Under the pieces are notes generated by a model that ran no database searches, was not told the origin of the DNA, and saw nothing but the letters and a program-made list of their open reading frames with translations. The position numbers and the translations under genes are program-made. From contig JAQYVG010000001.1 in NCBI GenBank assembly GCA_030145595.1, positions 1 through 32,483 on the forward strand: a DNA stretch of 32,483 nucleotides. The letters are read 5' to 3'. Below are positions 261-17,239 of this stretch, one piece after another (position 1 is the first letter of the stretch; each line of letters opens with the position of its first letter). This DNA comes from Desulfobacterales bacterium. Lineage in GTDB: Bacteria; Desulfobacterota; Desulfobacteria; Desulfobacterales; UBA11574.

Positions 261-308
261 GCACAACATATAGTGCTTACTCCGTATGCGATCATCTATA
301 TATTGTTA
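261..308. promoter_or_regulatory. Tandem NrdR-box-like palindromes upstream of aprBA
   Basis: GCACAACATATAGTGC (261-276) and CATCTATATATTGTTA (293-308); starts 32 bp apart; core C-W-A-Y-A-T-A-T-W-G matches NrdR consensus acaCwAtATaTwGtgt. Confidence 0.5.
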
Positions 309-366
309 GCGGCCAATATGCATTTAAACACCCTAATATTTACGAACCAGGTTCGTCCAAAAGTTC

Positions 367-395
367 TTGACAAGCATAATGTTAATTGGTATTTA
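367..395 (+). promoter_or_regulatory. Putative sigma70 promoter of aprBA
   Basis: TTGACA (367-372), 17-bp spacer ending TGG, then TATTTA (390-395); -10 is imperfect. Confidence 0.45.
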
Positions 396-661
396 AATCC
401 TTTGGCTTTTCATGGGCAAGCTATCTTCTTGATATTAAAGAATATATTTATGGAAATTTTGGTCGCGACGTTTCGTGACATAAATAAAACCGGATAGGAT
501 TTTTTTGTTTATCTGTAAAAAAAAATTAGACGGCCTAAAAGTTGCTTCTTTGGGCACATTTATGAAGGGAGGTGCAGAAAACTCGGAAGTTGTACCGTAA
601 AGTTTTTTTAGAGGTTAAAATACCGAAATCTTTTACAAAGCAAAATCAGGAGGTATACTAA

Positions 662-1099
662 ATGCCAAGTTTTGTAATTACTGAAAAATGTGACGGCTGC
701 AAAGGTGGAGACAAAACCGCCTGCATGTACATTTGCCCCAACGACCTGATGGTTCTGGAGCCCAATTCGATGTTGGCCTACAATCAGGAACCGGATCAGT
801 GCTGGGAATGTTTCTCATGCGTCAAGATCTGCCCCACCCAGGCAATTGAAGTAAGGGGTTATGCTGACTTTGTGCCGCTTGGAAGCAGCATTATGCCCAT
901 GCTGGGAACCGAGGATGTTATGTGGACCTGTAAGTTCAGAAACGGCACCATCAAGCGCTTTAAGTTCCCCATCCGGACCACCCCGGAAGGCGCCGCCAAT
1001 GCTTACGCAGATCTGAAAGGCAAGGACCTTGACAGCGAACTGCTTGCCACCGAAGAGGCCGACGGTTACGTTATGCTCACACCGATAGCAACCGTTTAA
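662..1099 (+). CDS. aprB: Dissimilatory adenylylsulfate reductase beta subunit
   Basis: MPSFVITEKCDGCKG start; two ferredoxin-type Cys motifs (CDGC..CMYICP, CWECFSCVKICP); KRFKFPIRTTPEG; SD AGGAGGT at 648-654. Confidence 0.98.
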   Translation: MPSFVITEKCDGCKGGDKTACMYICPNDLMVLEPNSMLAYNQEPDQCWECFSCVKICPTQAIEVRGYADFVPLGSSIMPMLGTEDVMWTCKFRNGTIKRFKFPIRTTPEGAANAYADLKGKDLDSELLATEEADGYVMLTPIATV

Positions 1100-1165
1100 G
1101 CAGATTAATGATTTTAAAAGATTCAGCAAACTGAACAACTACGATATTAGCTAAAGGAGGATAGC

Positions 1166-3154
1166 ATGGCATTACCGAATAAACCTTTAGGTGAACTCAA
1201 AGCCGTCAAGGACCCGGAAGTGGAAGAGCTCGAAGTTGATTATTTGATTGTCGGCGGCGGCATGGCTGCCACGGGAACGGCTTTCGAGATTAAAAAATGG
1301 GCGAAGGAAGACGCCAAGATTCTGCTGGTGGACAAAGCTTCTTTAGAGCGCAGCGGTGCTGTGGCCCAGGGACTTTCCGCCATCAATACTTACATTGGAA
1401 CCGCACAGGGCGACAATACACCGGATGACTATGTCCGCATGGTCCGCAACGACCTGATGGGCATCGTCCGTGAAGACCTTATTTTTGACTTGGGTAATCA
1501 CGTGGACGACTCGGTCTATCTGTTTGAAGAGTGGGGTCTGCCGATTTGGAAGATGTCGGATGACGGCAAGAAACTGGACGGTAAAAAGGGTATGAAGGTG
1601 GGGACATTGAAGAGCGGCGCCACCCCCGTACGTACCGGAAAATGGCAGATCATGATCAACGGCGAGTCCTATAAACGCATTGTGGCCGAAGCTGCCAAGC
1701 TGGCTCTCGGCGAAGACAATATCCTGGAGCGTGTGTTTATAGTCGAGCTGCTTCTGGACGCCAATGAAGAGAACCGCATCGCCGGTGCGGTCGGCTTTTC
1801 CGTACGTGAAAACAAAGTTTACATCATCAAATGCAACACCATGATGGTCGCCTGCGGCGGCGCCGTCAACATCTATCAGCCCCGCAGCGTCGGTGAAGGT
1901 AAAGGCCGCGCCTGGTATCCGATCTGGAATGCCGGATCCACCTATACCATGTGCATGAAAGTCGGTGCCGAGCTGACCATGATGGAAAACCGTTTCACCC
2001 CGTCACGCTATAAAGACGGTTATGGTCCGGTAGGGGCCTGGTTCTTGCTGTTCAAGGCCAAAACCCTCAACGGGCTGGGCGAAGGTTACGTGGGCAGTGA
2101 AGCGGCCCAAGCCGAACTTCAGAAATACGCACCTTACGGAACCGCCGCCATCACCCCGACCTGCCTGCGGAACCACCTGATGATTTTTGAGATGAAAGAA
2201 GGCCGCGGTCCCATTATGATGGATACGGTCAATGCGCTGAAGACCATGGGTGAAAAACTTGACAAGCGCGAGATGAAGGCCCTCGAATCCGAGGCCTGGG
2301 AAAACTTCCTCGACATGACTTGTGGTCAGGCCAACCTGTGGTGCGGTACCAACACCGAGCCCGCCGTGAAGAATTCGGAAATTATGCCCACCGAGCCCTA
2401 CCTGCTCGGATCTCACTCCGGCTGCTGCGGCCTGTGGGTATCAGGACCCGATTTTGACTGGGTACCCGAAGAATACAAAATCCGCTACAAAGAAAAAGTG
2501 TACAACCGTATGACCACGGTCAACGGACTGTTCACCTCCGGTGACGGTGTGGGCGCATCCGGTCACAAGTTCTCCTCCGGTTCCCATGCCGAAGGGCGGC
2601 AGTGCGCCAAGTCCATGGCCAGATTCGTGCGCGACAATGCCGACTTCAAACCGGCCATCAGCCAGTCCAACGAAGAACTGGTGGATCTGGTTTACAAACC
2701 GGTCAGGTTGTTCCTTGAGCATTGCGACTACACCACCGCCATCGATATCAACCCCAATTATCTCAAACCCGAGGGGATGACCTATCGGCTCATGAAAGCC
2801 GCCCACGAGTACGGCGCCGGTACGGCGACCTACTACCAGACCAGCAGCAAAAGCTTAGAGATGGTCATGGAAATGCTGCAGCTGATGCATGAAGACTGCG
2901 AAAAACTGGCGGCCGGTGATCTGCACGAACTGATGCGGGCCTGGGAAATCGAGCACCGTATCTGGACGCTCGAGTCTCATCTGCGCCACATCCAGTTCCG
3001 TAAAGAGACCCGTTATCCCGGATTCTACTATCAGTCCGACTATCCGGGAGTGGATGACGAAAACTGGTTCTGCTTTGTAAACTCCAAGTATGACCCCAAA
3101 GCAAAATCCTGGGATATCTTCAAGAAAGACTACATCCAGATTATCCCTGATTAG
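1166..3154 (+). CDS. aprA: Dissimilatory adenylylsulfate reductase alpha subunit (FAD)
   Basis: FAD motif IVGGGMAA; ERSGAVAQGLSAINTY; GKWQIMINGESYK; GHKFSSGSHAEGR; follows aprB. Confidence 0.98.
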   Translation: MALPNKPLGELKAVKDPEVEELEVDYLIVGGGMAATGTAFEIKKWAKEDAKILLVDKASLERSGAVAQGLSAINTYIGTAQGDNTPDDYVRMVRNDLMGIVREDLIFDLGNHVDDSVYLFEEWGLPIWKMSDDGKKLDGKKGMKVGTLKSGATPVRTGKWQIMINGESYKRIVAEAAKLALGEDNILERVFIVELLLDANEENRIAGAVGFSVRENKVYIIKCNTMMVACGGAVNIYQPRSVGEGKGRAWYPIWNAGSTYTMCMKVGAELTMMENRFTPSRYKDGYGPVGAWFLLFKAKTLNGLGEGYVGSEAAQAELQKYAPYGTAAITPTCLRNHLMIFEMKEGRGPIMMDTVNALKTMGEKLDKREMKALESEAWENFLDMTCGQANLWCGTNTEPAVKNSEIMPTEPYLLGSHSGCCGLWVSGPDFDWVPEEYKIRYKEKVYNRMTTVNGLFTSGDGVGASGHKFSSGSHAEGRQCAKSMARFVRDNADFKPAISQSNEELVDLVYKPVRLFLEHCDYTTAIDINPNYLKPEGMTYRLMKAAHEYGAGTATYYQTSSKSLEMVMEMLQLMHEDCEKLAAGDLHELMRAWEIEHRIWTLESHLRHIQFRKETRYPGFYYQSDYPGVDDENWFCFVNSKYDPKAKSWDIFKKDYIQIIPD

Positions 3155-3184
3155 TAATCGATCGGCTGCGATTTAGCCGGATAT

Positions 3185-3218
3185 ACCTCCAGGTGCCGCC
3201 AGGCACCTGGAGGTTTTT
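3185..3218 (+). terminator. Intrinsic terminator/stabilising hairpin after aprA
   Basis: Perfect 13-bp stem ACCTCCAGGTGCC / GGCACCTGGAGGT, GCCA loop, followed by T run. Confidence 0.85.
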
Positions 3219-3270
3219 ATTATGGAACCGCTATTAATCAATTGAAATTAACAATGCACGGAGGGATAGC

Positions 3271-4548
3271 ATGACAGAAGACAAAACAGCTCCTGCTAAT
3301 GGAAGCATTTTGGTTGTTGGAGGAGGGATCAGCGGGTTGACCACGGCCCTTGAAGCCGCCGAAGTGGGGTACGAGGTGTTTTTGGTCGAAAAAAACCCTT
3401 ACCTGGGCGGCAGAGTGGCACAGTTGAATCAATATTTTCCCAAGCTATGCCCTCCATCCTGCGGCCTGGAGATCAATTTTAGAAGAATCAAAGACAATCC
3501 TAAAATAACCGTCTTGACCCAGGGAGAAGTCGAAAAGATCGAGGGAACACCCGGCAGCTATGACGTTACTGTAGCGCTGAGCCCCAGGCTGGTTAACGCC
3601 AACTGCACGGCATGCAACGATTGCGTCGAAGCCTGCCCGGTGGAAAGAGATAATGAGTATAATTTTAACATGGACAAAACCAAAGCTATTTATCGACCTT
3701 TTGAAATGGCCTTTCCCATGCGCTATGCCATCGATGCGGCGGCCTGCAAAGGATCGGAATGCGGCGAATGCGCCAAGGTGTGCAAGTACGACGCCATCGA
3801 TCTGGATATGGCGGCCCAAACGCAGAACTTAAAGGTGGGAGCCGTTGTGTGGGCGACCGGATGGGAACCTTATGATGCCGCCAAAATAGACAACCTGGGG
3901 TTCGGCCAGTACCCGAACGTCATCACCAACATGATGATGGAGCGGCTGGCGGCGCCCAACGGACCGACCAAAGGAAAAATAACCCGACCGTCGGACGACA
4001 AGGAGCCCGCAAGTGTCGCCTTTGTTCAGTGCGCCGGGTCCCGCGACGAAAATTACCTTCCCTATTGTTCCTATATCTGCTGCATGGCCTCTCTGAAACA
4101 GGCCACCTACATCCGGGAACAGTATCCCGATGCCAAGGTGTATATTTTTTACATTGACGTCCGGGCACCGGGCCAGCGGTATGAAAAGTTCTATCAGAAG
4201 ATCAAAGAAGATGAGAATGTCATTTTGATCAAAGGCAAGGTCGCCGAAGTCAGCGAAGATACCGCCACCGGGAATATTACCGTGGTTGCCGAAAATGCCG
4301 TGACGGGCGAAAAGGTTTCGCAAGCCGTTGAAATGGCAGTTCTGGCCACCGGTATGCAGCCGACGGCTGCAAACGCCAAGCTGCCGGCCGATCTTACATA
4401 CAATGAAGACGGCTTTATCATCAATGATTTTGAAAAAGGCGGAATGTTTGCGGCTGGATGCGCCAACAAGCCCTCTGACGTGGTAACGTCGAATCAAAAT
4501 GCAACCGGTATGGCCCTTAAAGCGATTCAAACCCTGGTGAGGAAGTAG
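3271..4548 (+). CDS. qmoA: Quinone-interacting membrane-bound oxidoreductase subunit A (HdrA-like flavoprotein)
   Basis: VVGGGISG FAD motif, YFPKLCPPSCG, QCAGSRD..YCSYICC, ferredoxin Cys motifs; synteny after aprBA. Confidence 0.95.
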   Translation: MTEDKTAPANGSILVVGGGISGLTTALEAAEVGYEVFLVEKNPYLGGRVAQLNQYFPKLCPPSCGLEINFRRIKDNPKITVLTQGEVEKIEGTPGSYDVTVALSPRLVNANCTACNDCVEACPVERDNEYNFNMDKTKAIYRPFEMAFPMRYAIDAAACKGSECGECAKVCKYDAIDLDMAAQTQNLKVGAVVWATGWEPYDAAKIDNLGFGQYPNVITNMMMERLAAPNGPTKGKITRPSDDKEPASVAFVQCAGSRDENYLPYCSYICCMASLKQATYIREQYPDAKVYIFYIDVRAPGQRYEKFYQKIKEDENVILIKGKVAEVSEDTATGNITVVAENAVTGEKVSQAVEMAVLATGMQPTAANAKLPADLTYNEDGFIINDFEKGGMFAAGCANKPSDVVTSNQNATGMALKAIQTLVRK

Positions 4549-4558
4549 GAGGTTATCC

Positions 4559-6898
4559 ATGGATAAAAAATATGGTGTCTATATTTGCACAGGTTGCGGC
4601 ATCGGAGATGCCCTGGTAATGGAAGATCTGTGTGCCGTGCCTGAAGAAGAAGGTTTTTCCGTTAAAACCCATCCGTTTCTCTGCGGAGCCGAAGGCCTTG
4701 AACTCCTTAAAAAAGATATCGCCGATGACGGCGTCAACACACTGATGATTGCCGCCTGTTCCCGCCGGGTCAATTACGATGTCTTCAAGTTCGAAGGCTG
4801 CATTGTCGACCGGGTGAACCTGAGAGAACAGGTGGTCTGGTCCCATCCCAGATCTGAATTCCCGGCCCTTACGGAAGACCAGAAAGATGACGGTGAATCC
4901 TTCGATCGTCTGCAGATGCTGGCCGAAGATTACCTGAAGATGAGCATGGCCAAGCTTGAAAAGATCGATCTGCCGGAGCCGTACAAAGTGGAAACCCTGA
5001 GCAGAAAAATTATGGTTATCGGCGGCGGCATCACCGGTATTTCAGCGGCCCTGGATGCGGCCAAAGCCGGCTATGAGGTTACTATCGTTGAAAAAGAGTC
5101 GTCTTTGGGCGGCTATGCGGCCAAGATGCGCAAACAACTGCCCAACGAAGACCCCTATGAAAATCTTATTCCACCGGTTATTGAAAGCAAGATCAAAGAA
5201 CTGGAAGGCTATGACAATATCACCGTTAAAACCGAGACCATCGTAGCCCGTCTCGCCGGTGAACCGGGAGATTTCATTGTAACGCTGAAAAAGCCCGGTG
5301 AAAAAATCGAGTTTGACGTCCCCTTTCCGCTGCCCGAAGAGATGAAGTTCGATGAAAACGGCAAAGAGCTCGATGTTGAAGATCAGCATAAACGCTATCT
5401 GGAATACAATGAAGGCAAACTTGACATTTTGCAGTTCGATCCTGACGGTGAAAAGTTCGGAGCCGTAGTCCTGGCGGCCGGCTGGCGCCCGGATCAACCT
5501 GAGGGCGATGAATTTGCCCATTTGGGTTTCGGGGAACTGCCCGATGTCATCACCAACTGCCAGTTCGAAGAAATTGCCGCCAAGGGCAAAGTAACCAGAC
5601 CGTCGGACGGCAAAGAAGCCAAATCCGTGGCCTTTATCCAGAGTCCCGGCAAGGGGGATGACGATGCTGATTTTAAGTATTGTGGATCGGTGACCAGCCT
5701 GGTGGCCCTCAAGCAGGCCAAATATGTACGCGAAGACTACGACGACAGCAAGGCCTATATCTTTTACCAGCACATGCGTACCCCCGGCCTGACGGAAAAC
5801 TTTTACAAGAGCATCCAGCAGGACGAGGGCATCTTTCTGACCAAAGGCGACGTCATCAGCGTCTCTACAAATGGAGACGGCATGATTTTGGAAGCGGACA
5901 ATACCCTTTTGGGAGAAAAAGTCAAGGTCATCGCCGATCTGGTTGTACTGGCCACCGGTATGGTCCCGGTAACCGTTGATGACCCTGTGGTCAACATGGC
6001 GTATCGCCAGGGACCTTCGTTTCGGGAGATCGGTCTTTTCGACGGCTTTTGCGATTCAAACTATATCTGCTTCCCGTATGAAACCCAGCGAACCGGTATT
6101 TATGCGGCCGGAGGCATCCGGCGCAGCATGACCATGGAAGAGTCCATGGAAGACGCCACCGGTGCCGCCCTTAAAGCGATTCAGTGCATTGAATCGGTCA
6201 ACCGCGGCGTGTCCGTGCACCCCCGGTCCGGTGATATGACCTTCCCGGACTTCTTTTTCCAACGATGCACCCAGTGCAAGCGCTGTACCGAAGAGTGCCC
6301 TTTTGGCGCTTTAGATGATGATGAAAAGGGAACTCCCAAACCGAACCCGTCGCGCTGCCGGCGCTGCGGCACCTGCATGGGCGCTTGCCCCGAACGTATC
6401 ATCGGTTTTGCCGACTTCAACATCGACAGTGTCGGCTCCATGGTCAAGGCCATCGGTGTGCCCTCTGAAGATGATTATTACGAGCCTCCCTTTAGGATCG
6501 TGGGATTTGTGTGCGAAAACGACGCCATGCCGGCCCTTGATATCGCCGGTTTGAACAGGCTTGTCTATTCAGCCGACGTGCGCTTAATCCCGATTCGGTG
6601 TCTGGGCTCCATGAACGTTATCTGGATCAAAGACGCCCTGGCCCAGGGCCTGGACGGAGCTTTCCTGCTGGGCTGCAATCACGGCGACGATTATCAATGT
6701 CATTTTATCAAGGGCAGCGAACTTTCGGAAATCAGAGTCCAAAAGATTGGTGAGGCCTTGTCGAGCCTGGCCCTGGAAGAAGAACGGGTCGCCCAGTTCC
6801 AGGTCGCCATCGACGAATACGATAAAATTCCCAAGATGATTAATGACTTTGTGGAACAGGTAGAAGCCCTCGGCCCCAACCCGTTCAAGGGATTCTAG
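4559..6898 (+). CDS. qmoB: Qmo subunit B (HdrA-like plus C-terminal MvhD-like domain)
   Basis: VYICTGCG start, IGGGITG FAD motif, CTQCKRCTEECP/CRRCGTCMGACP, C-terminal FVCENDA..IRCLGS..GCNHGDDYQCHF MvhD-like region. Confidence 0.95.
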   Translation: MDKKYGVYICTGCGIGDALVMEDLCAVPEEEGFSVKTHPFLCGAEGLELLKKDIADDGVNTLMIAACSRRVNYDVFKFEGCIVDRVNLREQVVWSHPRSEFPALTEDQKDDGESFDRLQMLAEDYLKMSMAKLEKIDLPEPYKVETLSRKIMVIGGGITGISAALDAAKAGYEVTIVEKESSLGGYAAKMRKQLPNEDPYENLIPPVIESKIKELEGYDNITVKTETIVARLAGEPGDFIVTLKKPGEKIEFDVPFPLPEEMKFDENGKELDVEDQHKRYLEYNEGKLDILQFDPDGEKFGAVVLAAGWRPDQPEGDEFAHLGFGELPDVITNCQFEEIAAKGKVTRPSDGKEAKSVAFIQSPGKGDDDADFKYCGSVTSLVALKQAKYVREDYDDSKAYIFYQHMRTPGLTENFYKSIQQDEGIFLTKGDVISVSTNGDGMILEADNTLLGEKVKVIADLVVLATGMVPVTVDDPVVNMAYRQGPSFREIGLFDGFCDSNYICFPYETQRTGIYAAGGIRRSMTMEESMEDATGAALKAIQCIESVNRGVSVHPRSGDMTFPDFFFQRCTQCKRCTEECPFGALDDDEKGTPKPNPSRCRRCGTCMGACPERIIGFADFNIDSVGSMVKAIGVPSEDDYYEPPFRIVGFVCENDAMPALDIAGLNRLVYSADVRLIPIRCLGSMNVIWIKDALAQGLDGAFLLGCNHGDDYQCHFIKGSELSEIRVQKIGEALSSLALEEERVAQFQVAIDEYDKIPKMINDFVEQVEALGPNPFKGF

Positions 6899-7004
6899 TG
6901 ATTGATGATTTTCGATTGACGATTGTAGATTGGATAGTTGCGCCATCCGACAGGATGAAGCAACTTAATTAAGGCTTCAATCGTCAATATTCAATATTCA
7001 ATAG
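6899..7004. repeat. Inverted heptamer-array cassette between qmoB stop and qmoC SD
   Basis: Left arm TGATTGA TGATTTT CGATTGA CGATTGT AGATTGG (6899-6933); inner hairpin AGTTGC..CATCC-GACA-GGATG..GCAACT (6936-6965); right arm TCAATCG TCAATAT TCAATAT TCAATAG (6977-7004). Confidence 0.8.
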
Positions 7005-7018
7005 TAGGAGGTATTCTT

Positions 7019-8158
7019 ATGACGGATAAATACCTGATTGAGCCTGATATAAATTTTGTGAAAGAGATCATCGGGCTGGGGGGCGACACCCTGAAAAAGT
7101 GCTTTCAATGCGCAACCTGTTCGGTGGTCTGTCCTATTTCTCCGGACACCAAACCCTTTCCCAGGAAAGAGATGATTGCGGCGTCATGGGGATTAAAGGA
7201 CCGGCTGGTCGGCAATCTGGATATCTGGCTGTGCCATCACTGCGGGGATTGTACTACCAAATGCCCGCGCGGTGCCAAGCCGGGCGAAGTGCTGGGAGCT
7301 GTGCGCTCTTACGCCATCACGGAGTATGCTGCTCCCAAGGCCATCGGCAAAGCGGTCAATAACCCCAAAATGCTCCCTTTGCTTATGGGAATTCCCGTGG
7401 TGATCTTCCTGGTTCTGGGACTTATCACCGGTCTGCTCGATTTTTCACCGCCGCTGGGGGAACACGGGATCTCCCATTCTATGTTCTTTTCCACCTGGCT
7501 GGTCGATATGATTTTCGTTCCCCTGGCAGGCTGGGTTGTAATAGTTTTTGCCATGGGGCTCAAAAGATTTATCAATGATATCCATGAAAACGCCGTCCTG
7601 GAAGGCAAGACCGACAAGCAGGAGCTGGACTATGTTGGGTTAATCAAGGCGTTGTTTCGAGTTATCCCAACCATACTAAAACAGGACAAATTTTCGGAAT
7701 GCTCGGAAAACAAAGACCGGGACCTGGCTCACTGGATGGTCTTTTTATCATTTATCGGACTTTTTATCGTCACCAATGTATTTTTCGTGGCCCTTTACGG
7801 TCTGCAGCTTCACGGTCCCTATTCCCAGTTGAACCCGGTTAAATGGCTCGCTAATATCAGCGGTGTGGCCCTTGTTGTCGGTGGCATTCTGATGATCAAG
7901 AACCGTCTTTCCAAAACCGATCAGACCAGCGTTTACAAGGACTGGTACCTTTTAGGGCTTGTCCTGGGACTTGGACTTACCGGCATGCTGACCGAAATGA
8001 CGCGCCTGGCGGGTATGGCCGGTGTGACGTATGCTATGTATTTTGTCCATCTGGTGTTTGTGTTCAACCTGTTTGCATTTTTGCCGTTTTCAAAACTGGC
8101 CCACCTGGTCTACCGAACCGTGGCCATGGCATATAACGAATGGTCAGGCAGGAAATAA
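7019..8158 (+). CDS. qmoC: Qmo subunit C (ferredoxin domain plus membrane cytochrome b)
   Basis: CFQCATCSVVCP and CHHCGDCTTKCP motifs, about 6 hydrophobic segments, LPFSKLAHLVYR; synteny. Confidence 0.95.
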   Translation: MTDKYLIEPDINFVKEIIGLGGDTLKKCFQCATCSVVCPISPDTKPFPRKEMIAASWGLKDRLVGNLDIWLCHHCGDCTTKCPRGAKPGEVLGAVRSYAITEYAAPKAIGKAVNNPKMLPLLMGIPVVIFLVLGLITGLLDFSPPLGEHGISHSMFFSTWLVDMIFVPLAGWVVIVFAMGLKRFINDIHENAVLEGKTDKQELDYVGLIKALFRVIPTILKQDKFSECSENKDRDLAHWMVFLSFIGLFIVTNVFFVALYGLQLHGPYSQLNPVKWLANISGVALVVGGILMIKNRLSKTDQTSVYKDWYLLGLVLGLGLTGMLTEMTRLAGMAGVTYAMYFVHLVFVFNLFAFLPFSKLAHLVYRTVAMAYNEWSGRK

Positions 8159-8194
8159 CCACAAGCAAGCTACTAGTACCAAATTCGACCAACC

Positions 8195-8783: not shown

Positions 8784-10952
8784 ATGCAAGAGCGTTCCGT
8801 TCAATTCTTCGATAAAATAAAGACTTCAAAAAACCTTCCCTCACTTCCTCAAATTCTATTAAAACTGATCGAACTCTGTAATAGTGAAGACAGCACATTC
8901 AAGGACATCGCCCAAGTCATCGATAAGGATACGTCTTTAAGTGCCAAAGTTGTCAAGATGGTCAATTCTGTCTATTATGGACTATCCAAAAGGGTAACAA
9001 GTATTGATCAGTCTCTGGTACTTTTAGGGCAAAATACAATCAAAAATATTGCCATTAGCGCGTCGGTTAATCAAGCTTTCAGCAAAGCAAAAGACAATTC
9101 TGTTTTTGGGTTGAAGGTTTTCTGGAGGCACTCTCTGATGTGTGCCATATTGTCCAAGCTGATTGCTAAAAAGATATCATACGCTTCTCCTGATGAGGCA
9201 TTTTTGACAGGGCTTCTTCACGATATAGGCAAGTTGGTTCTGTGGGTAAACTTTCCCAAAGAATATGCTGATATTCTTAATTCATCAAAAGGTCAGTGGG
9301 ATCTGGTTTTAGCCGGAGAAGCACGCCATGGTACTACTCACTGTGAAGTTGGAGCTTGGCTGATCAAACGCTGGAAGCTTCAATCATTCATGGCAGATGC
9401 AGTGCGTTATCATCATGAAGCAGTCGATAGAATTCAAGATGCTCTTGCTCTCGTTAAGATAATATATGTTGGGAATATCCTTTGTCCCGAAACAAATAAA
9501 GAAAAAGAGGTCAAATTTGGAATAGCCAAAAATATTTTTGGATTTGAAAACTCTGAGGTAGAAGAAATCATCCTTCAAGCCGAAAAAGATGTAATAGATA
9601 TCGCACAATCTTTAGATATAGATATTGAGCCGCTTGATGTTTCAGAAAAAACTGTTTCTGAAAAAGATCATGAAAAACAAGAAGATCTAATCCAGGAAGT
9701 AAAAGACATTACTTTGTTTCATGGCACACTCCAAAATCTTTTAGAGGCTCATGATGAAGATTCTATACTGCAAGCTGCACAGGAAGGGCTTCATATCTTG
9801 TTTGATGTTAAAAATGTTTTATTTTTTCTGCATGAATCAGAAAGAAATATTCTGCTCGGCAAGGGCATCGCTCCTGACAAAAATAATGATCCAATCAATG
9901 AAGTGACAATCCCCTTGCAAAATGGAAAAAGCCTTTTAGCCAAATCCCTTCTCCAAAGAAGGCCCCTTAATTCTTTCAGCGATTCAATCAAAGACAAACT
10001 TGCAATTATAGATGAGCAAATTATCCGCTTAGTTGAACAAGACGGTGTTCTTTGCCTTCCAATGATCGCACACAAACAATATGTTGGTGTAATAGTCTTG
10101 GGATTAGAAGAGGCTCGTGTCTCCCATTTAACTGATAAGATAAAGCTTCTGATGATGTTTACTAAACAGGCGGCTTCAGCTCTTCAAGCAAACTATTTGA
10201 CCCAAAACCAGGCAAAATTAATTCAGTCTGAACGTCTGAGCGCCACGTCAACCATAGCTCAAAAGATTGTTCACGAAGCGAATACCCCATTAAGCGTCAC
10301 AAAAAATTATCTTGCCATTCTGAAGAGAAAATTGTCTGAAGATCAGCCCGTTGAAGAGGAAATCAGGATTATTAATGAGGAAATCGATCGAGTGGCACTT
10401 ATTATAAGTGAATTGTCTGATTTTTCAGAACTTAAAATCCAGCCAAACGATCCTGTGGATGTAAATGCCCTTTTGTCAAACCTGATAAGAATTTTTCAGG
10501 AATCCCTTATACTCAAGCCCGACATCAATACTCATTTAAAGTTAGACCCTTCACTTCCGGCGGTTATGACAGATAAAAACAGAATGACGCAGGTCTTTAG
10601 CAACCTTATCAAAAATGCCGCTGAGGCTATGTCGGGCAGAGGAAATCTTTGTATTAGCACCAGAGATATTTCAAATTACATCGCCGATAAAATAAACCAG
10701 GTTGCAGACAATACACAAGGGTATATGGAAATCATTATCGAAGATGATGGTCCGGGCATTCCTGATAGCGTTAAAGCACAACTCTTTGAACCTTATATTA
10801 CCTCGAAAGGGGCCGGACATGCCGGTTTGGGACTCTCCATTGTTTATAATGCAGTCAAGGAATTAAAGGGGGCCATAACTTGTGAAAGCGGCAATAAAAA
10901 AGGAACGAGTTTTAAAATAGCTTTACCAATAACCCAACATCAAGAATCTTAA
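8784..10952 (+). CDS. HDOD-GAF-HisKA-HATPase sensor histidine kinase
   Basis: HDOD motifs LPSLP, FWRHSL, GLLHDIGKL, YHHE; GAF-like LCLPM..VGVIVL; H-box IVHEANTPL, N-box NLIKNA, DDGPGI, GLGLSIV; ATG 8784 preferred over TTG 8781. Confidence 0.9.
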   Translation: MQERSVQFFDKIKTSKNLPSLPQILLKLIELCNSEDSTFKDIAQVIDKDTSLSAKVVKMVNSVYYGLSKRVTSIDQSLVLLGQNTIKNIAISASVNQAFSKAKDNSVFGLKVFWRHSLMCAILSKLIAKKISYASPDEAFLTGLLHDIGKLVLWVNFPKEYADILNSSKGQWDLVLAGEARHGTTHCEVGAWLIKRWKLQSFMADAVRYHHEAVDRIQDALALVKIIYVGNILCPETNKEKEVKFGIAKNIFGFENSEVEEIILQAEKDVIDIAQSLDIDIEPLDVSEKTVSEKDHEKQEDLIQEVKDITLFHGTLQNLLEAHDEDSILQAAQEGLHILFDVKNVLFFLHESERNILLGKGIAPDKNNDPINEVTIPLQNGKSLLAKSLLQRRPLNSFSDSIKDKLAIIDEQIIRLVEQDGVLCLPMIAHKQYVGVIVLGLEEARVSHLTDKIKLLMMFTKQAASALQANYLTQNQAKLIQSERLSATSTIAQKIVHEANTPLSVTKNYLAILKRKLSEDQPVEEEIRIINEEIDRVALIISELSDFSELKIQPNDPVDVNALLSNLIRIFQESLILKPDINTHLKLDPSLPAVMTDKNRMTQVFSNLIKNAAEAMSGRGNLCISTRDISNYIADKINQVADNTQGYMEIIIEDDGPGIPDSVKAQLFEPYITSKGAGHAGLGLSIVYNAVKELKGAITCESGNKKGTSFKIALPITQHQES

Positions 10953-10967
10953 ATTAAGGAGTTCAAG

Positions 10968-12935
10968 ATGCCCAATAGTCCTAAAGTTCTCATAGTTGAT
11001 GACGACTCCAGAATGTGCGAAAGCTTAAAGGCATTATTAAGCAATCAGGACTATATATTGAAAACATGCAATAGTGGTAAAAAAGCAATAGAATATTTGA
11101 ACAAGGATGATTTTGATCTTGTGCTTCTCGACATGGTTATGCCTGATATGAATGGCTACCAAATCATGGATTATATAAACGATCAAAGTCCTGATACCCT
11201 GGTCATTGTTATTAGCGGACATGCTTCAATAAAATCAGCTATAAAATTTATAAAGAAAGGGGCCTACGACTGCATCAGGAAACCATTCGAGCCGGAAGAA
11301 TTGTTGATTACAGTAAAAAATGCCCTTGATCACAAAAGGTTAGTGAGTGAAAACGATGTTATTAATGAAAAGCTGATACGGACAGAAGAATGTTACAGGT
11401 ATCTGGTTAAAAATTCTCCTGACATTATTTATATGCTGGATAGTCAAGGCAACTTTAAATTTATTAGCAATGCAGCTGAGCGGTTACTCGGTTTTAAAAT
11501 TGAACAACTTATTGGTCAGCACTATACTACTCTTATCCATGGCGATGATTTAGAAAAAGCTAAATGGTCATTTAATGAAAGAAGAACCGGCGATCGTGCT
11601 GCCTCCCAAATGGAATTGCGCCTAAAAGTCTGTGATGAAAATGGTCAGTTTAAGGATAGTAAGGTCGGACACCTGACTATTGAACTGAAATCAAACGGCA
11701 TATACGAAGAGCCGATCAAAAAAGAGGATAAAAAATTCATTGGTACACATGGCGTTATAAGAGACATAGATGACCGGAAGCAGCTTGAATCCCAATTAAA
11801 ACAAGCTTATAAAATGGAAGCTATCGGCACACTCACTGGTGGAATCGCTCATGAATTTAACAACATCCTCGGTATCATTTTAGGTAATACGGAATTAGCA
11901 CTGGATGATGTTCCTGAGTGGAATCCTGCTCATTTCAACCTTGAAGAGATTAAAACAGCAGGCCTGCGTGCCAAAAATGTTGTCAGACAGCTTCTCAGTT
12001 TCATCCGAAAAACCGACATAAAGCGACAACCTATAAGTCTAATCCCCGTCATCAAAGACGCTCTCAAGTTTTTGCGATCCACGTTAACTGCTAATATTGA
12101 TATTCGTCAGAACATTCAAGATACAGCTGATACCATCCTTGCTGATCCAACTCAAATCAATCAGATAATGATCAATTTATGCACTAATGCTTCTCACGCC
12201 GTGGAAGAAACCGGGGGGATGCTGGAAGTCGGAATGCAAAATGTTTTTTTGGATGAAGATTCAACTTCTATGCTTGACCCTGAATTGACCCAGGGCAACT
12301 ATGTCAAAGTGACTGTAAGCGATACTGGTCATGGCATAGCCCCGGAAATCCTAGAACGGATATTTGATCCCTATTTTACAACAAAAGAAGTTGGAAAAGG
12401 TTCCGGTTTGGGGCTATCAGTGGTTCAAGGCATTGTCAAAATCCATAAAGGTGCAATTACTGTTGACAGCGAACTCGGCAAAGGAACCACTTTTAGCGTT
12501 TTTTTTCCCTTGACTGAAGAAGAAGTGGTGACAGAATCTAAAACTATTGAGAAACTTCCTACTGGTAATGAAAAAATACTCTTTGTTGATGATGAAGAAT
12601 CAATCGTGTTTATTGTGCAACAGATACTGGAGCGATTGGGATATCAGGTCGAAGTAAAAATAAATCCTGTCGAAGCTCTGGAATTATTTCGTTTGAACCC
12701 TGATCAATTTGATCTGGTGATCACCGACATGGCGATGCCGCAGATGACCGGTGACAAGCTGGTGAAAGAAATTTTAAACATCCGCTCTGAAATGCCGATA
12801 ATCTTCTGTACCGGATTTAGTGAAAAAGTTGCAGAGGAAAACGCAAAAGAACTTGGCGTCAAAGCTTTTGCCATGAAACCCCTGGTTATACGCGATCTTG
12901 CAATGGTGGTTCGAAAAGTTCTGGATGAGGTATAA
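10968..12935 (+). CDS. Hybrid sensor kinase/response regulator REC-PAS-HisKA-HATPase-REC
   Basis: N-terminal REC (LIVDDD, LLDMVMP, KPF), PAS (SPDIIY..G.F..IS), H-box GGIAHEFNNIL, DTGHGI, FDPYFTTK, GSGLGL, C-terminal REC (LFVDDE, ITDMAMP). Confidence 0.93.
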   Translation: MPNSPKVLIVDDDSRMCESLKALLSNQDYILKTCNSGKKAIEYLNKDDFDLVLLDMVMPDMNGYQIMDYINDQSPDTLVIVISGHASIKSAIKFIKKGAYDCIRKPFEPEELLITVKNALDHKRLVSENDVINEKLIRTEECYRYLVKNSPDIIYMLDSQGNFKFISNAAERLLGFKIEQLIGQHYTTLIHGDDLEKAKWSFNERRTGDRAASQMELRLKVCDENGQFKDSKVGHLTIELKSNGIYEEPIKKEDKKFIGTHGVIRDIDDRKQLESQLKQAYKMEAIGTLTGGIAHEFNNILGIILGNTELALDDVPEWNPAHFNLEEIKTAGLRAKNVVRQLLSFIRKTDIKRQPISLIPVIKDALKFLRSTLTANIDIRQNIQDTADTILADPTQINQIMINLCTNASHAVEETGGMLEVGMQNVFLDEDSTSMLDPELTQGNYVKVTVSDTGHGIAPEILERIFDPYFTTKEVGKGSGLGLSVVQGIVKIHKGAITVDSELGKGTTFSVFFPLTEEEVVTESKTIEKLPTGNEKILFVDDEESIVFIVQQILERLGYQVEVKINPVEALELFRLNPDQFDLVITDMAMPQMTGDKLVKEILNIRSEMPIIFCTGFSEKVAEENAKELGVKAFAMKPLVIRDLAMVVRKVLDEV

Positions 12936-12967
12936 AAAAAGGAGATGTCAGGGGACATCTCCTTTTT
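12934..12967. terminator. Bidirectional intrinsic terminator between hybrid kinase and sat
   Basis: AAAAAGGAGATGTC-AGGG-GACATCTCCTTTTT with A run on the left and T run on the right, between convergent genes. Confidence 0.88.
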
Positions 12968-13010
12968 ATGCTGCAGGTCAAACTGATTTTGTTATCAGGA
13001 TTATGAAAGA

Positions 13011-14288
13011 TTACTCTTCGCCGGTTGCAGCGCCGTGCATCTTGATTTCGACTTTTTCTTCAAGCTCTTCATAGTACTGGCGAAGGATTTCAACAACTTC
13101 ATCCCGTCCAAAATGATCGGGAAGCTCGCCGCCTTCTGAAAGCATTTTGCGCAGCATGGTTCCGGAGAGCAGTACCCGGTCCTCTTTGCCGTGGGGGCAA
13201 GTCCTTAAGGATGCCATACCGTCGCACTTGTAGCAGTAGAAGGTCCAGTCGATCTTTAAAGGTTTGCACAGCAGCATTTTGCCGGGATCATCAGAGGTCG
13301 GAATCTTGTCAAAGATCGTCTGGGCTTCGAACATGCCGTAAAAGTCACCCACACCGGCATGGTCCCGGCCGATAATCATGCGTGAGCAGCCGTAGTTCTG
13401 ACGGAAGGTGGCATGCAGCAGGCCTTCACGGGGCCCGGCATAGCGCATGTCAAGGGGATAACCGCCCTGTACCACGTTATTTTCCACAAAGTAGCCCTTT
13501 ACAAGGGCATCGATGCATTTAACGCGAACGTCGGCCGGAATATCACCCGGTTTCAGGTTACCGACCAGCGAGTGAATATAGACACCGTCGCAAACTTCAA
13601 CGGCAATCTTGCACAGGTATTCGTGGGATCGGTGCATGGGATTTCTGAGCTGCAGCGCGGCAATCTCGGTCCAGCCTTTATCTTCGAAGATCTTGCGGGA
13701 GTCTTCGGGCCGCATATAGGTGCCCGCAAATTCGACGGGGTATTCACCTTCACTCAACACTTTGACCGGACCGGCGATATTAACATCATTCTGCGCCATG
13801 ACCATCTGAACGCCGGGGTGATCGTCTTGGGAAACTTTCCAGAATTCCTCGACCGTTGGGGTCCCTTCCCCCATAAAAACCTTCTCGCATTCATACTTTT
13901 TGTCGGCCTCGGTCATTTCATACTTCTCGGTGACCTGCATAGTGGCCATGATTTCATCGCCTTCCGGGTCGTAAAGTGCAATCTCATCGCCTTCACTAAT
14001 ACCGTCAGCATCTTCTTTGGATGCATCCAGCGTCACCGGAATGGGCCAGAATGTCCCGTCGGCAATTTGAAAATTATCACAAACACCCTGCCAGTCCGCC
14101 TTGGTCATAAAACCTGTCAGCGGGCTGAAGCCTCCGATCCCCATCATGATTAAGTCACCCTTTGAGCGTGGTGCAATAGAGATCTTTTTAAGGCCCTCGG
14201 CCTTTTTCTTTTCCGCTTCCAATTCAGCGCCTTCAAGTAGGCAGCAAGTTAAGCCTTTGCCGCCATGAGGTGGAATTAAATTTGACAT
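13011..14288 (-). CDS. sat: Sulfate adenylyltransferase (dissimilatory ATP sulfurylase)
   Basis: LIPPHGG start, [42 protein letters not shown], Zn motif CYKC..CPH. Confidence 0.98.
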
Positions 14289-14430
14289 AAGTCTTTCTCT
14301 CCTTTCGCTTTTTATATTAAAATAAATGGCTTTTAGAACACCATCTCGATTTTACCAAAAGAGTACAATTAATAGGGATAAAACTATTTGTCAAGCAGAA
14401 TTCCAGCACTAATGTGTCAATCGCTTTCAA

Positions 14431-14478
14431 ATGCAATATATTGTATTATTTATATTGTTGACACGCAATATATACTGG
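14431..14478. promoter_or_regulatory. Tandem NrdR-box-like palindromes in sat / divergent gene intergenic region
   Basis: ATGCAATATATTGTAT (14431-14446) and ACGCAATATATACTGG (14463-14478); starts 32 bp apart; they straddle TTGACA at 14458. Confidence 0.45.
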
Positions 14479-14487
14479 CGATATGCT
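14458..14487 (+). promoter_or_regulatory. Putative sigma70 promoter for 14665..15102
   Basis: TTGACA (14458-14463), 18-bp spacer, TATGCT (14482-14487). Confidence 0.5.
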
Positions 14488-14600
14488 TTTTCCCAGAAAG
14501 TCGATAATAGTAGACAAAAATTGAATGATTTATTAATATGCTTAACGAATCAAACATATTGCGAAATTGACTATCTTTTTTCTCAAGCTATTAGATCGAG

Positions 14601-14634
14601 TTAGTGTCCATCCATAAATACTTTTGAGCACTAA
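14601..14634. repeat. Dispersed repeat TTAGTGTCCATCCATAAAT (likely MITE end remnant)
   Basis: 19-mer identical at 14601-14619 and 22731-22749; 14/15 match at 15103-15117; this copy is closed by CACTAA (inverted TTAGTG) at 14629-14634. Confidence 0.7.
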
Positions 14635-14664
14635 ATAGTTTTATCAACAAAAAGGGGGGGGCGA

Positions 14665-15102
14665 ATGACTGCAATAAATTTAGAAGAGGCCAGAATCAAC
14701 TTAGAAGGCCAATGGCTGTCTGCTGAAGATCTGACTAGCATGATCCAGGAAAAAATGCAGGCCGGTGATATGAAATTTTCAAATCTTGCCACTGCCCTGG
14801 AGGAGCTTAACAACGCGCTGGAAAATTCAACCACGTTGGATATAAAGCTTGTTCTTACAAAAGGAGAATACGAAAAATTAAAAGCTGCCGGCGGTGACGA
14901 TGACCGCAAGTCTGTTCGCAAAGCGCTCATGGCGTTCATCGGCGGCAGTACCGCCGGCCTAAAGAGGCTGGCTATTAAATGCCCCAAATGTAAAGCTTCT
15001 ATCGAGATACCAACAGATGAAAGACCCCTTGATGTCGAATGCCCCAAGTGTGGTACCGGCGGCCGTTTAACAGCACAGAACAAGTGGGCCAAGCTCGACT
15101 AA
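14665..15102 (+). CDS. Hypothetical protein with putative ribbon-helix-helix segment and C-terminal zinc ribbon
   Basis: 145 aa with G-rich SD; LDIKLVL-TKGEYEKLKAAG-G-DDRKSVRKALMAFIG has a beta-helix-turn-helix pattern; two CPKC motifs (CPKC-x16-CPKC). Confidence 0.8.
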   Translation: MTAINLEEARINLEGQWLSAEDLTSMIQEKMQAGDMKFSNLATALEELNNALENSTTLDIKLVLTKGEYEKLKAAGGDDDRKSVRKALMAFIGGSTAGLKRLAIKCPKCKASIEIPTDERPLDVECPKCGTGGRLTAQNKWAKLD

Positions 15103-15216
15103 TTAGTGCCCATCCATTTAGGACTTTTTAAGGGCTCGCCAATAATACCTTCGCATTTTCCTACCCTGCCACGATTCTTAACGGTCGCAACGTTAAAAAA
15201 TGGCCCTATAATCAGC

Positions 15217-15244
15217 TTGATTTTTCTTAAAAACATAATATAAT
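15217..15244 (+). promoter_or_regulatory. Putative promoter of csp gene (implies ~120-nt 5' UTR)
   Basis: TTGATT (15217-15222), 16-bp spacer, TATAAT (15239-15244); UTR hairpin GGTCCGTT/GGCGGACC at 15261-15283. Confidence 0.55.
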
Positions 15245-15371
15245 ACAATTAATCAATAAAGGTCCGTTCTTAATTGGCGGACCGGTTTCGCTCTGAAGGC
15301 AAGATCCATTTGTCAAAGCGGCAACCTGCAGTTTGGAACCATGAGAATTTTTTTGAAAGGAGCGTGTCACT

Positions 15372-15572
15372 ATGGCTAATGGAATTGTAAAATGGTTTAA
15401 TAGCAGCAAAGGTTATGGCTTCATTGAGCAGGAAGATGGCCCGGATGTATTTGTTCATCATTCAGGCATCAATGCTACCGGTTTCAAGACTCTCTATGAA
15501 GGCGACCGGGTTACTTTTGACATTGAGCAGGGGCAAAAAGGTCCTGCTGCAGTAAATGTCACTGTAGTTTAG
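15372..15572 (+). CDS. csp: Cold-shock protein (CspA family)
   Basis: GIVKWFN, RNP1 KGYGFI, RNP2 [20 protein letters not shown]; SD AAGGAG. Confidence 0.97.
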
Positions 15573-15590
15573 CTTAAATTTTTGAATTAG

Positions 15591-15631
15591 AAAAGGGCGT
15601 TCCATTTGATTTTAAATGAACGCCCTTTTTT
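15591..15631 (+). terminator. Intrinsic terminator of csp
   Basis: AAAAGGGCGTTC ... GAACGCCCTTTT stem followed by T run. Confidence 0.8.
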
Positions 15632-15661
15632 GTGGTTTTTATTCTTTTTGCAACCAAAATT

Positions 15662-15706
15662 GCTGGTCTCGCAAAAAGGTAGGAAAACGACCTTTTTACG
15701 AGAGTA
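15662..15706. repeat. Miniature inverted repeat related to the ends of the 26031-26182 element
   Basis: TCTCGCAAAAAGGT (15667-15680) / ACCTTTTTACGAGA (15690-15703), 13/14 complementary; GCTGGTCTCGCAAAAAG resembles GATGGCGTCGTAAAAAG. Confidence 0.6.
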
Positions 15707-15798
15707 TTTTGTATTTGGTTTTTAGTGTTTGGTGATTTAACATAATGGCATATAAGCATATATTTCAAGGAAAACACAAAATACTAAACACCAAACAC
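15704..15798. repeat. Inverted heptamer-array cassette
   Basis: Left GTATTTT GTATTTG GTTTTTA GTGTTTG GTGATTT (15704-15738); right AAAACAC AAAATAC TAAACAC CAAACAC (15771-15798). Confidence 0.75.
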
Positions 15799-15847
15799 CT
15801 GATGAATTTTGTTTTTTAGAATTTCATCACAACTTGCCGGTAGCGGC

Positions 15848-16945
15848 GTGAAAAACGTTTTGCTGAAATTTTTCATTCTGGCTTCAATGCTGTTGGGGCT
15901 GCCCATGCTGGGCATCATTCTTGCGGGGTACCCGGTTTTAAGATATTTGGAGTTTCCTCCTGAAACGCTGTACGTTTCCCATGCACCGTTTTCCTGGGTT
16001 GCTTTTACTGCTTACACTCTTTTTATTACTGCAGTGGTACTGCCACTCTTTATTCCGGTGATTCGATCAATCCGGCGATCTATACCAGATAGTGCGACCG
16101 TCTTTCCTTTTCCGTGGTGGGGCCGGCTGGGAGTTATTACCGGCATGCTTTTTTGGATACTGGCCTGGACCCGCTTCCCCTGGTTTGCCGGCCTGCAGCC
16201 ACATACGTTCACTCCCTTGTGGCTTTCGTATATCCTGGTCATCAACGCCCTGTGTTATCGGCGCAGCGGCCGCTGCATGTTAATCAACCGCAGTCGATAT
16301 TTTCTGCTCCTTTTCCCGGCAAGTGCGGCCTTCTGGTGGTTTTTTGAATACCTAAACCGGTTTGTTCAGAACTGGCACTACACGGGTGTCCATTACGGTA
16401 CCGTGAAGTATTTCTGTCTTGCTACCCTACCGTTTTCAACCGTACTGCCTGCGGTTTTAGGAACCCGGGAGTGGATTGCCGGCTTTCCCTGGATTAAGCA
16501 GGAGTTCAAACATTTTCTGCCTCTTGGCTTTTCACACCCCAAACTTGCGGCCTGGACCGCTCTGGGGATATCCGCTTGCGGCTTGACCGGCATCGGTATC
16601 TGGCCGGATTACCTTTTTCCCCTCCTGTGGGTATCACCTCTGATGATCATCGTTTCACTGCAGGCCCTAATGCGAGAAAGGCATGTACTGTCAGTCATCT
16701 TTAAGGGCGATTGGCGCGGTGTGATTTCTTCAGCGGCGGCGGCACTGTTTTGCGGCCTGTTTTGGGAGATGTGGAACTACTATAGTCTTGCCAAATGGCA
16801 CTACAGTGTACCGTTTGTCCACCGTTTTCAAATATTTGAAATGCCGCTTTTAGGGTTTGCCGGCTACCTTCCTTTCGGGCTCGAGTGCCTTGTGATCGGA
16901 GACCTGCTCTCTCGTCTACAAAATCCAGTTGACAAATCAAAATGA
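15848..16945 (+). CDS. Hypothetical polytopic membrane protein
   Basis: About 9-10 hydrophobic segments; internally repeated motifs FWWFFEYLN..NWHY and FWEMWNYYSLAKWHY, FEMPLLGFAGYLPFG; start uncertain (TTG 15809, GTG 15848 or ATG 15887). Confidence 0.8.
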   Translation: MKNVLLKFFILASMLLGLPMLGIILAGYPVLRYLEFPPETLYVSHAPFSWVAFTAYTLFITAVVLPLFIPVIRSIRRSIPDSATVFPFPWWGRLGVITGMLFWILAWTRFPWFAGLQPHTFTPLWLSYILVINALCYRRSGRCMLINRSRYFLLLFPASAAFWWFFEYLNRFVQNWHYTGVHYGTVKYFCLATLPFSTVLPAVLGTREWIAGFPWIKQEFKHFLPLGFSHPKLAAWTALGISACGLTGIGIWPDYLFPLLWVSPLMIIVSLQALMRERHVLSVIFKGDWRGVISSAAAALFCGLFWEMWNYYSLAKWHYSVPFVHRFQIFEMPLLGFAGYLPFGLECLVIGDLLSRLQNPVDKSK

Positions 16946-16990
16946 ATAGAAGCAACATCCTTATGCCTCGTCAGATCAAATAATGTTGGT

Positions 16991-17060
16991 TCACCGCCGG
17001 CCGGCCCCGCTGAAAACGGGGTGCGCGCAAAGGCAAAAAATATGTGCGTCTCTGCGGTGA
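16991..17060. repeat. Degenerate inverted-repeat element with nested GC hairpin
   Basis: TCACCGC (16991-16997) / GCGGTGA (17054-17060) ends; internal GCCCCG-CTGAAAA-CGGGGT hairpin 17004-17022. Confidence 0.45.
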
Positions 17061-17080
17061 GATACCATTTCCGGGCTAAA

Positions 17081-17157
17081 GTGCTATATATAGGTTTTTT
17101 TAATTGACAGACAACAATATGTTGATATATGGAGAATGAAAATGCAACATAGTGATA
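17081..17157. promoter_or_regulatory. Three NrdR-box-like palindromes around the GT4 promoter
   Basis: GTGCTATATATAGGTT (17081), CAACAATATGTTGATA (17112), ATGCAACATAGTGATA (17142); spacings 31 and 30 bp; TTGACA at 17104-17109 lies between boxes 1 and 2. Confidence 0.45.
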
Positions 17158-17239
17158 ATATGCTAAAGTAATTTGTTCTGCCCGTCGAAATAAGTTTAGA
17201 AAACATACCGACCAGCTACAACTTAGAAAGTATGATAAT

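Follow-up and report, generated by a model that had tools for sequence, protein, structure and literature searches.

Conserved paired NrdR-type boxes suggest a link between the nucleotide pool and sulfate respiration in Desulfobacterales

Seven boxes at three promoter regions

The DNA analyzed here, referred to throughout as the window, corresponds to bases 1 to 32,483 of contig C111 in the draft genome of a Desulfobacterales bacterium (700 contigs, 3.68 Mb, 92% complete). Its gene content, assigned by Pfam, includes the adenylylsulfate reductase genes aprBA, the ATP sulfurylase gene sat, and a GT4-family glycosyltransferase gene (GT4 gene), and the promoter regions of these genes carry seven 16-base pair (bp) near-palindromes that resemble the operators of NrdR, the repressor of ribonucleotide reductase (RNR) genes. 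The boxes start at 261/293, 14431/14463, and 17081/17112/17142, with spacings of 32 bp, 32 bp, and 31 and 30 bp, respectively. All seven had been located by an earlier note on this DNA, which also described the boxes of the last two regions as straddling a TTGACA; our analysis confirms these positions and spacings and puts the TTGACA between or at the boxes of the sat region at 14458-14463 and of the GT4 region at 17104-17109. The boxes, with the promoters and genes beside them, are as follows.

261-276, no strand: apr box 1, distal; 15.5 bits; start 106 bp upstream of where the apr -35 element begins
293-308, no strand: apr box 2, proximal; 16.9 bits; follows box 1 by 32 bp; 74 bp upstream of the -35 element
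367-395, plus strand: predicted aprBA core promoter; TTGACA at 367-372, 17-bp spacer, TATTTA at 390-395
662-1099, plus strand: aprB, adenylylsulfate reductase
1166-3154, plus strand: aprA, adenylylsulfate reductase; Pfam APS-reductase_C and FAD_binding_2 for aprB/aprA
13011-14288, minus strand: sat, ATP sulfurylase; Pfam ATP-sulfurylase and PUA_2
14366-14394, minus strand: predicted sat core promoter; TTGACA at 14394-14389, TAATTG at 14371-14366
14431-14446, no strand: strong box between sat and orf145; 17.6 bits; minus-strand start 52 bp upstream of the sat -35 element
14463-14478, no strand: weaker box between sat and orf145; 10.4 bits; starts 84 bp upstream of the sat -35 element
14665-15102, plus strand: orf145, a 145-amino acid protein with a zinc-ribbon-like C-terminal part, divergent from sat
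17081-17096, no strand: GT4 box 1; 9.9 bits; starts 23 bp upstream of TTGACA
17104-17109, plus strand: GT4 TTGACA, within the spacer of boxes 1 and 2; layout identical to that of nrdD
17112-17127, no strand: GT4 box 2; 17.0 bits; covers the predicted promoter spacer and -10 region
17142-17157, no strand: GT4 box 3; weak, 8.1 bits; 30 bp after box 2
17240-18613, plus strand: GT4-family glycosyltransferase; nearest named family mannosylglucosylglycerate synthase, 243 bits against a cut-off of 640

The boxes are genuine and exceed what chance would supply. The exact core CWAYATRTWG occurs seven times in the window against 0.39 expected, a count that none of 100 shuffles reaches; five of these cores belong to the boxes listed above, and the boxes at 14463 and 17142 are each one base off the core. 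The whole 3.68-Mb genome holds only 74 exact cores, so that the window is about ten-fold enriched. A first weight matrix, built from the window's own boxes, finds box pairs across the genome almost exclusively at 30-33 bp spacing. A second matrix was made from 31 sites upstream of the RNR gene nrdD in related genomes to lessen circularity, which persists mildly because those sites were first picked with the window-seeded matrix; it gives the seven boxes 8.1-17.6 bits. Sites of at least 16 bits number 33 genome-wide against 1-8 in five dinucleotide shuffles (local 500-bp blocks), and 44 of the 66 sites of at least 14 bits lie outside open reading frames (ORFs) of at least 120 amino acids. The genome scan for pairs 30-33 bp apart that the earlier note had called for yields eight with a summed score of at least 24, against none in the shuffles; at the remaining spacings within 16-120 bp there are four, against 0-1.

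These controls bear directly on the possibility that the boxes are functionless AT-rich near-palindromes, a caveat that the earlier note had itself raised. The motif is AT-rich, moderate single sites are frequent (249 of at least 10 bits in the genome against 156-188 in shuffles), and two single matches in the window sit inside genes. AT-richness nevertheless does not explain the boxes, since the shuffles reproduce neither the cores in the window nor the pairs in the genome, and it is further contradicted by the conservation of box positions across families despite diverged flanking sequence. We regard a chance origin as extremely improbable.

By motif and spacing, the window boxes are NrdR-type operators of this clade, as the earlier note had supposed, because the motif and spacing upstream of nrdD match them both in this genome and in its relatives. 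The nrdD gene of the same genome (contig C222) has an upstream box pair 31 bp apart, and 19 of 21 nrdD loci in relatives have such a pair. The genome also encodes a canonical NrdR (TIGR00244, 194.8 bits against a cut-off of 124.65) with Pfam Zn_ribbon_NrdR and ATP-cone domains, whose gene adjoins a deaminase-like gene. The resemblance to NrdR control of RNR operons in E. coli, Streptomyces, and Listeria thus extends to the 16-bp consensus, the paired boxes with a 14-16 bp spacer, the regulator with its zinc ribbon and ATP-cone, and, at nrdD and the GT4 gene, the position of boxes over the predicted -35 and -10 elements. In the known NrdR binding mode, likewise, the spacers measure 15-16 bp and the box centers are whole helical turns apart (PMC12051234).

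Other genes of the window can be described briefly. Three large unannotated ORFs (3271-8158) lie downstream of aprA and occupy the place expected for qmoABC. There are also a 378-amino acid gene without assigned function and two sensor kinase genes. The two remaining exact cores, at 10077 and 11051, fall within single boxes inside these kinase genes (10074-10089, which scores 15.6 bits, and 11048-11063); neither box has a partner 29-34 bp away, and both are probably not functional. The neighbor of sat, orf145, had been taken in the earlier note for a ribbon-helix-helix-like protein; Pfam gives no ribbon-helix-helix match, and the only matches to its C-terminal part are of zinc-ribbon type, weak and below cut-off.

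Two layouts relative to the promoter

At nrdD, all 19 pairs in relatives hold a TTGACA inside a 14-15 bp spacer, so that box 2 covers the predicted promoter spacer up to the -10 element, a repressor layout. This arrangement (box 1, 7 bp, TTGACA, 2 bp, box 2) is found at nrdD and at the GT4 gene, and the two agree base for base. Of 13 GT4 orthologues (identity 74% or higher), 11 have the pair; so do 2 of 14 weaker matches, and the three paralogues in this genome all lack it. At the position of box 3, no box of at least 8 bits was found in the remaining genomes scanned. The glycosyltransferase itself obtains only generic labels, its match to mannosylglucosylglycerate synthase lying far under the family cut-off. 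In relatives, numerous GT4-family matches carry a flag for an in-frame stop codon (TAA, TAG, or TGA) in the aligned segment.

Pairs whose spacer holds a -35-like hexamer also lie upstream of a small ORF resembling the C-terminus of nrdD and, in the repressor layout, upstream of three further genes:

C33:416/447: box pair upstream of recD2
C75:4674/4705: box pair upstream of mutS
C681:11674/11706: box pair upstream of mltA

The match of the small ORF (C261:1630-2122, 117 amino acids) is confined to the C-terminal part of nrdD, probably the glycyl-radical region; the ORF has its box pair upstream and adjoins a myo-inositol-1-phosphate synthase gene. Together with a strong single box (C676:7891) between dnaN and a UvrD-like helicase gene, the recD2, mutS, and mltA pairs suggest a wider DNA-metabolism regulon. 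Single NrdR boxes reported for Shewanella dnaA and Pseudomonas topA reach into DNA-metabolism genes in a similar way, as the dnaN/UvrD-like, recD2, and mutS sites do here. These published cases are lone boxes whose function is doubtful, as cited in bioRxiv 10.1101/2025.03.28.645925, whereas the non-RNR sites described here are phased pairs, conserved across genera, and include respiratory genes. The class II-type RNR gene of this genome, on contig C32, shows no box of at least 8 bits in the 2.1 kb running from within the gene past its start, and none of at least 9 bits anywhere on that contig.

The overlap of boxes with the predicted core promoter that is present at the GT4 gene, as at nrdD, is absent at apr (106 and 74 bp upstream) and at sat (84 and 52 bp upstream). 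The apr -35 context is conserved across the order, and box 1 starts 104-106 bp from the start of TTGACA in 21 of 26 relatives (101 bp in one and 118 bp in another; three loci are without a box). The distance from box 1 to the start of the divergent gene varies in relatives from 126 to 541 bp. A fixed distance to the apr -35 element and a variable one to the neighbor indicate that the boxes go with the apr promoter rather than with the neighbor, a YkgJ-like cysteine-cluster gene that at least 22 of 30 loci have upstream in divergent orientation. This result also disposes of the suspicion in the earlier note that the 261/293 pair serves a gene beyond the left edge of the window, and it weighs at apr against the more general alternative that the pairs serve divergent neighbors, the YkgJ-like gene beside apr and orf145 beside sat, with their position at apr and sat being incidental. 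That the YkgJ-like gene is so often present speaks for such an arrangement; against it, too, inspection by eye found no conserved -35-like sequence for a second promoter on either strand of the apr box spacer.

In the present genome, the YkgJ-like gene is on a separate contig, C431, and the contig break falls within heptamer repeats. These 7-bp tandem repeats lie between the YkgJ-like gene and apr (window 1-85 and C431:~990-1151), with a unit that differs by side; the relative G034 has similar heptamer repeats directly upstream of its apr box.

The apr module was also followed in a wider sample. Among the 80 best apr loci from named genomes, mostly labeled Desulfobacterales or delta proteobacteria, 66 have a recognizable promoter. 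Box 1 (at least 10 bits) lies at 101-108 bp in 42 of these and box 2 (at least 6 bits) at 70-77 bp in 32, with both present in 28; no further in-phase box that might serve looping was found, no offset beyond about 105 and 74 bp being common to more than two of the 66. Metagenome-assembled genomes labeled Desulfobacula, Desulfotignum, Desulfosarcina, and Desulfosudis are among those with the module. In 21 loci aligned on the -35 element, the core of box 2 carries 0.79 bits per column against 0.29-0.34 in the flanking sequence, and the corresponding box 1 value of 1.49 bits is inflated because the loci were chosen on box 1. In a further sample of 60 genomes of the class, the module occurs in 30 and is common in families f22, f23, f18, f5, and f30; none was seen in f27, f6, f21, f26, or f28. 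Outside the order, a box at 104 bp was found in 2 of 40 apr loci, both from one genus.

Between promoter and gene, apr has a long leader (window 403-661, about 260 nucleotides) whose length is conserved, the ATG lying 266-323 bp after the -35 element in relatives. An Rfam scan of window positions 1-20000 matched no family, so that no known leader RNA accounts for this long 5' region. Contigs of four metatranscriptome runs were compared with window positions 100-1300, and one covers 417-678 without mismatch, joining the leader to aprB; this fits the predicted promoter at 367-395 and is no proof of it. No cover was found upstream of 417 in the four runs, which is not evidence for a start site.

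A similar distal arrangement occurs at dsrA, where a box lies 101-105 bp from TTGACA in 13 of 29 relatives (six of the 13 scoring at least 13 bits) and is joined in seven of these 13 by a second site at 72-74 bp. Upstream of dsrC in the present genome, only weak sites and no module were found.

At sat, the core promoter block is conserved across the order in nearly all loci compared, and no more than 5 of 30 loci have boxes ahead of it, those of four genomes of this genus and of G009. Here the divergent-neighbor explanation finds its best support. orf145 adjoins sat in 6 of 30 loci, and boxes are present in five of these six and in none of the other 24. Read on the plus strand, moreover, the pair comes near to a repressor layout for orf145, with a TTGACA (14458-14463) that faces orf145 at the end of the spacer and abuts the weaker box. 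Three observations run counter to it: in this genus, the sat -35 element and both boxes share a helical phase (84 and 52 bp); G009 has a single strong box 106 bp from the sat -35 element and about 0.9 kb from orf145; and an orf145 paralogue on contig C466 has no boxes. The sat-region pair may thus serve orf145, sat, or both, perhaps mainly orf145. As an account of apr and sat together, the divergent-neighbor explanation appears unlikely to us.

Footprinting of orthologous promoters, which the earlier note had proposed for apr and sat, therefore upholds the operator at apr and not as a general feature of sat, where it tracks orf145. The idea that sulfate-reduction promoters carry such operators stands for apr and extends to dsrA, a gene that the earlier note had not named; the sat pair is not general.

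Candidate binding proteins

Canonical NrdR is present in 99 of 101 sampled genomes of the class, in 98 of them over the curated cut-off. Two other proteins encoded in this genome have to be weighed against it. The first is a 65-amino acid XRE-type helix-turn-helix protein, whose genes (C28:3692-3889, C36:2953-3147, and C152:216-383) are all preceded by a TTGACA that has boxes 82-83 and 52-53 bp upstream, so that sat and these three contigs share distal distances within one genome. The gene family has 1 to 11 copies per genome, and the copy on C36 lies directly upstream of pilM-pilQ.

It is possible, though we think it rather doubtful, that some other protein with an NrdR-like operator occupies the distal pairs (apr, dsr, sat, XRE genes); this XRE protein, the best-defined candidate, would then control its own gene. 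An operator ahead of a regulator gene is the usual sign of self-regulation, and the characteristic distances recur at the three copies in this genome and in 15 relatives: among the best XRE copies of 30 relatives, 19 have a pair and 15 of these 19 have it at 82-83 and 52-53 bp. The distal layout is also unlike published NrdR sites, as far as the available parts of the sources describe them, and NrdR genes are stated to be "never found under autoregulation" (PMC5343134). The distribution of the gene argues the other way. It was found in 44 of 101 class genomes, including the source genome, and not in the other 57, which include all 23 of family f22, and yet f22 keeps the apr box (14 of 20 at the strict distance; in five more, a strong box stands 96 or 115-118 bp away). 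The apr module likewise shows no association with the XRE gene, occurring in 11 of 20 genomes with it and 19 of 40 without it. Finally, when nrdD, XRE, and apr boxes are tabulated by position, no column clearly discriminates between them, so that the motifs of the two classes of site are not clearly different.

The second protein is a 178-amino acid paralogue of NrdR (C674:1262-1795; L002:1132-1668, minus strand) with a zinc ribbon (Pfam NrdR zinc ribbon, 3e-17), in which the ATP-cone was not found. Further features are a lysine-rich linker and a winged-helix tail resembling AbiEi_4; the gene lies downstream of a radical-SAM gene. The databases hold about 60 clusters of such ATP-cone-less NrdR-like proteins, mostly unnamed. 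Were this paralogue to bind the boxes in place of NrdR, control would be independent of nucleotides. It is encoded in the genome, its ribbon retains most of the residues shared with true NrdR (two sequences compared by eye), and the genera of the family in which it occurs overlap those with sat or dsr boxes. Its phyletic pattern speaks against this role, however: it was found in 1 of 100 other class genomes (E ≤1e-19) and not in genera g7, g9, and g10 or families f22, f18, f5, and f30, which keep apr boxes. We consider substitution of NrdR by the paralogue very unlikely; at most, it would be a local co-player.

The phyletic patterns of the XRE protein and the paralogue mean that neither can be the general binder. 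A universally present factor of another kind could also bind the boxes, and canonical NrdR is the likeliest, because most economical, candidate on the comparative data. No box of at least 9 bits was found at nrdR, at the NrdR-like paralogue, at the class II RNR gene, or on the contig with the YkgJ-like gene, save one of 9.1 bits on C15.

A possible tie between deoxynucleotides and respiration

We propose that genuine NrdR-type pairs have spread beyond RNR genes in this lineage, that they stand in two layouts, and that canonical NrdR probably binds both, a reading to which we assign a probability of roughly 60%. It builds on the motif identity, spacing, conservation, fixed phasing, and phyletic patterns observed here, from which we infer NrdR as the binder, an effect of its binding on apr, dsr, and sat expression, and the direction that this effect might take.

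In the proposed mechanism, a canonical NrdR tetramer holding adenosine triphosphate (ATP) and deoxyadenosine triphosphate (dATP) would bind both layouts. At the repressor layout, NrdR is expected to shut off nrdD and the GT4 gene by occluding the -35 element, the spacer, and the -10 element. At the distal layout, it would modulate the apr, dsr, and sat promoters from afar and from one face of the helix: at apr and dsrAB, box starts lie about 105 and 74 bp from the -35 element of a strong downstream TTGACA promoter, and at sat (in this genus) and the XRE genes about 84 and 52 bp from it. Because the helical phase is fixed, a bound protein would face RNA polymerase or a partner, and distally bound NrdR could hinder an upstream element or activator or, alternatively, help recruitment. 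Simple occlusion in the usual style of NrdR is not the mechanism expected at apr and sat, since their boxes lie far upstream of the predicted core promoters. It is also possible that the distal mode is that of an activator or anti-activator, although we know of no activator role for NrdR.

Class I activator sites and distal operators, for example those of CRP type, act on one face of the helix. The distal sites share with them -35 distances (52, 74, 84, and 105 bp) near whole multiples of 10.5 bp, and differ in that no RNA polymerase contact or second looping operator was found here. In Desulfovibrio, Rex controls sat and energy genes in response to NADH/NAD. That system, too, puts a sensor of metabolic state on sulfate-activation genes, and it differs from the NrdR-type module in its protein, operator, and signal; in the window, a search with a Rex-type consensus pattern gave one match with three mismatches (560-579) against 2.24 expected, so that no Rex-type operator stands out above chance.

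As to the signal, published work describes NrdR as binding DNA when it carries ATP together with dATP (PMC12176259), with tetramers binding two boxes in that state and non-binding oligomers forming with ATP alone (PMC12176259, PMC12051234, PMC9110341). The earlier note had suggested that ATP-consuming Sat and AprAB, which produces adenosine monophosphate, might be coupled to the nucleotide pool; the loading described in PMC12176259 points to the dATP/ATP balance, and not to adenosine monophosphate from AprAB, as the signal that such a coupling would use.

Several observations weigh against NrdR as regulator of the respiratory genes. Published accounts, in the parts available, present NrdR as a repressor of RNR genes only; a second box was seen at none of the non-RNR genes of E. 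coli and P. aeruginosa (bioRxiv 10.1101/2025.03.28.645925). The targets here differ accordingly from those of the known RNR operons in including apr, dsr, sat, glycosyltransferase, and XRE genes, recD2, and mutS, and the apr, dsr, and sat pairs, placed upstream at a distance of 5 to 10 helical turns from the -35 element, do not touch the predicted core promoter. Two boxes are required for tight NrdR binding according to PMC12051234, and apr box 2 is degenerate in several genera (-0.6 to -8.3 in G010, G019, and G022). The dsrA gene of the present genome has only a weak remnant box of 7.0 bits. Families that have nrdR and no apr boxes (f27, 0 of 6; f6, 0 of 3; f28, 0 of 2) imply that the link to apr is lineage-specific. 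Counts across related genomes, finally, are not independent, so that the support they give is overstated. With these points in mind, we hold only tentatively, at somewhat worse than even odds, that NrdR directly governs apr, dsr, and, in some genera, sat in much of the Desulfobacterales, through pairs 5, 7, 8, and 10 turns upstream.

The earlier note did not recall any description of this regulon link, and none was found here: the full-text literature searched, a scope outside which most subscription journals, supplements, and RegPrecise-type tables fall, gave no connection of NrdR with aprBA, adenylylsulfate reductase, or sulfate reducers. In its accessible portion, a comparison of NrdR regulons in Proteobacteria lists deoxyribonucleotide synthesis only (PMC5343134), and the parts available of a 2025 paper on regulatory networks of Desulfobacteraceae do not mention apr promoters or operators (PMC11887813). 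The conserved paired boxes therefore suggest, at the level of sequence, a previously undescribed link between the nucleotide pool and respiration.

Much of the sulfate reduction in marine sediments is the work of Desulfobacterales, and we found next to nothing published on their control of apr, sat, and dsr. A conserved, sharply placed operator module offers a concrete handle on this control, and it could mark co-regulated genes in uncultured sulfate reducers. If NrdR is indeed the binder, a regulator regarded as specific to RNR genes would gain a second role, in energy metabolism, and a second mode of action, from distal helix-phased sites. Respiratory capacity in these bacteria would then be tied to the deoxynucleotide pool and to the state of replication.

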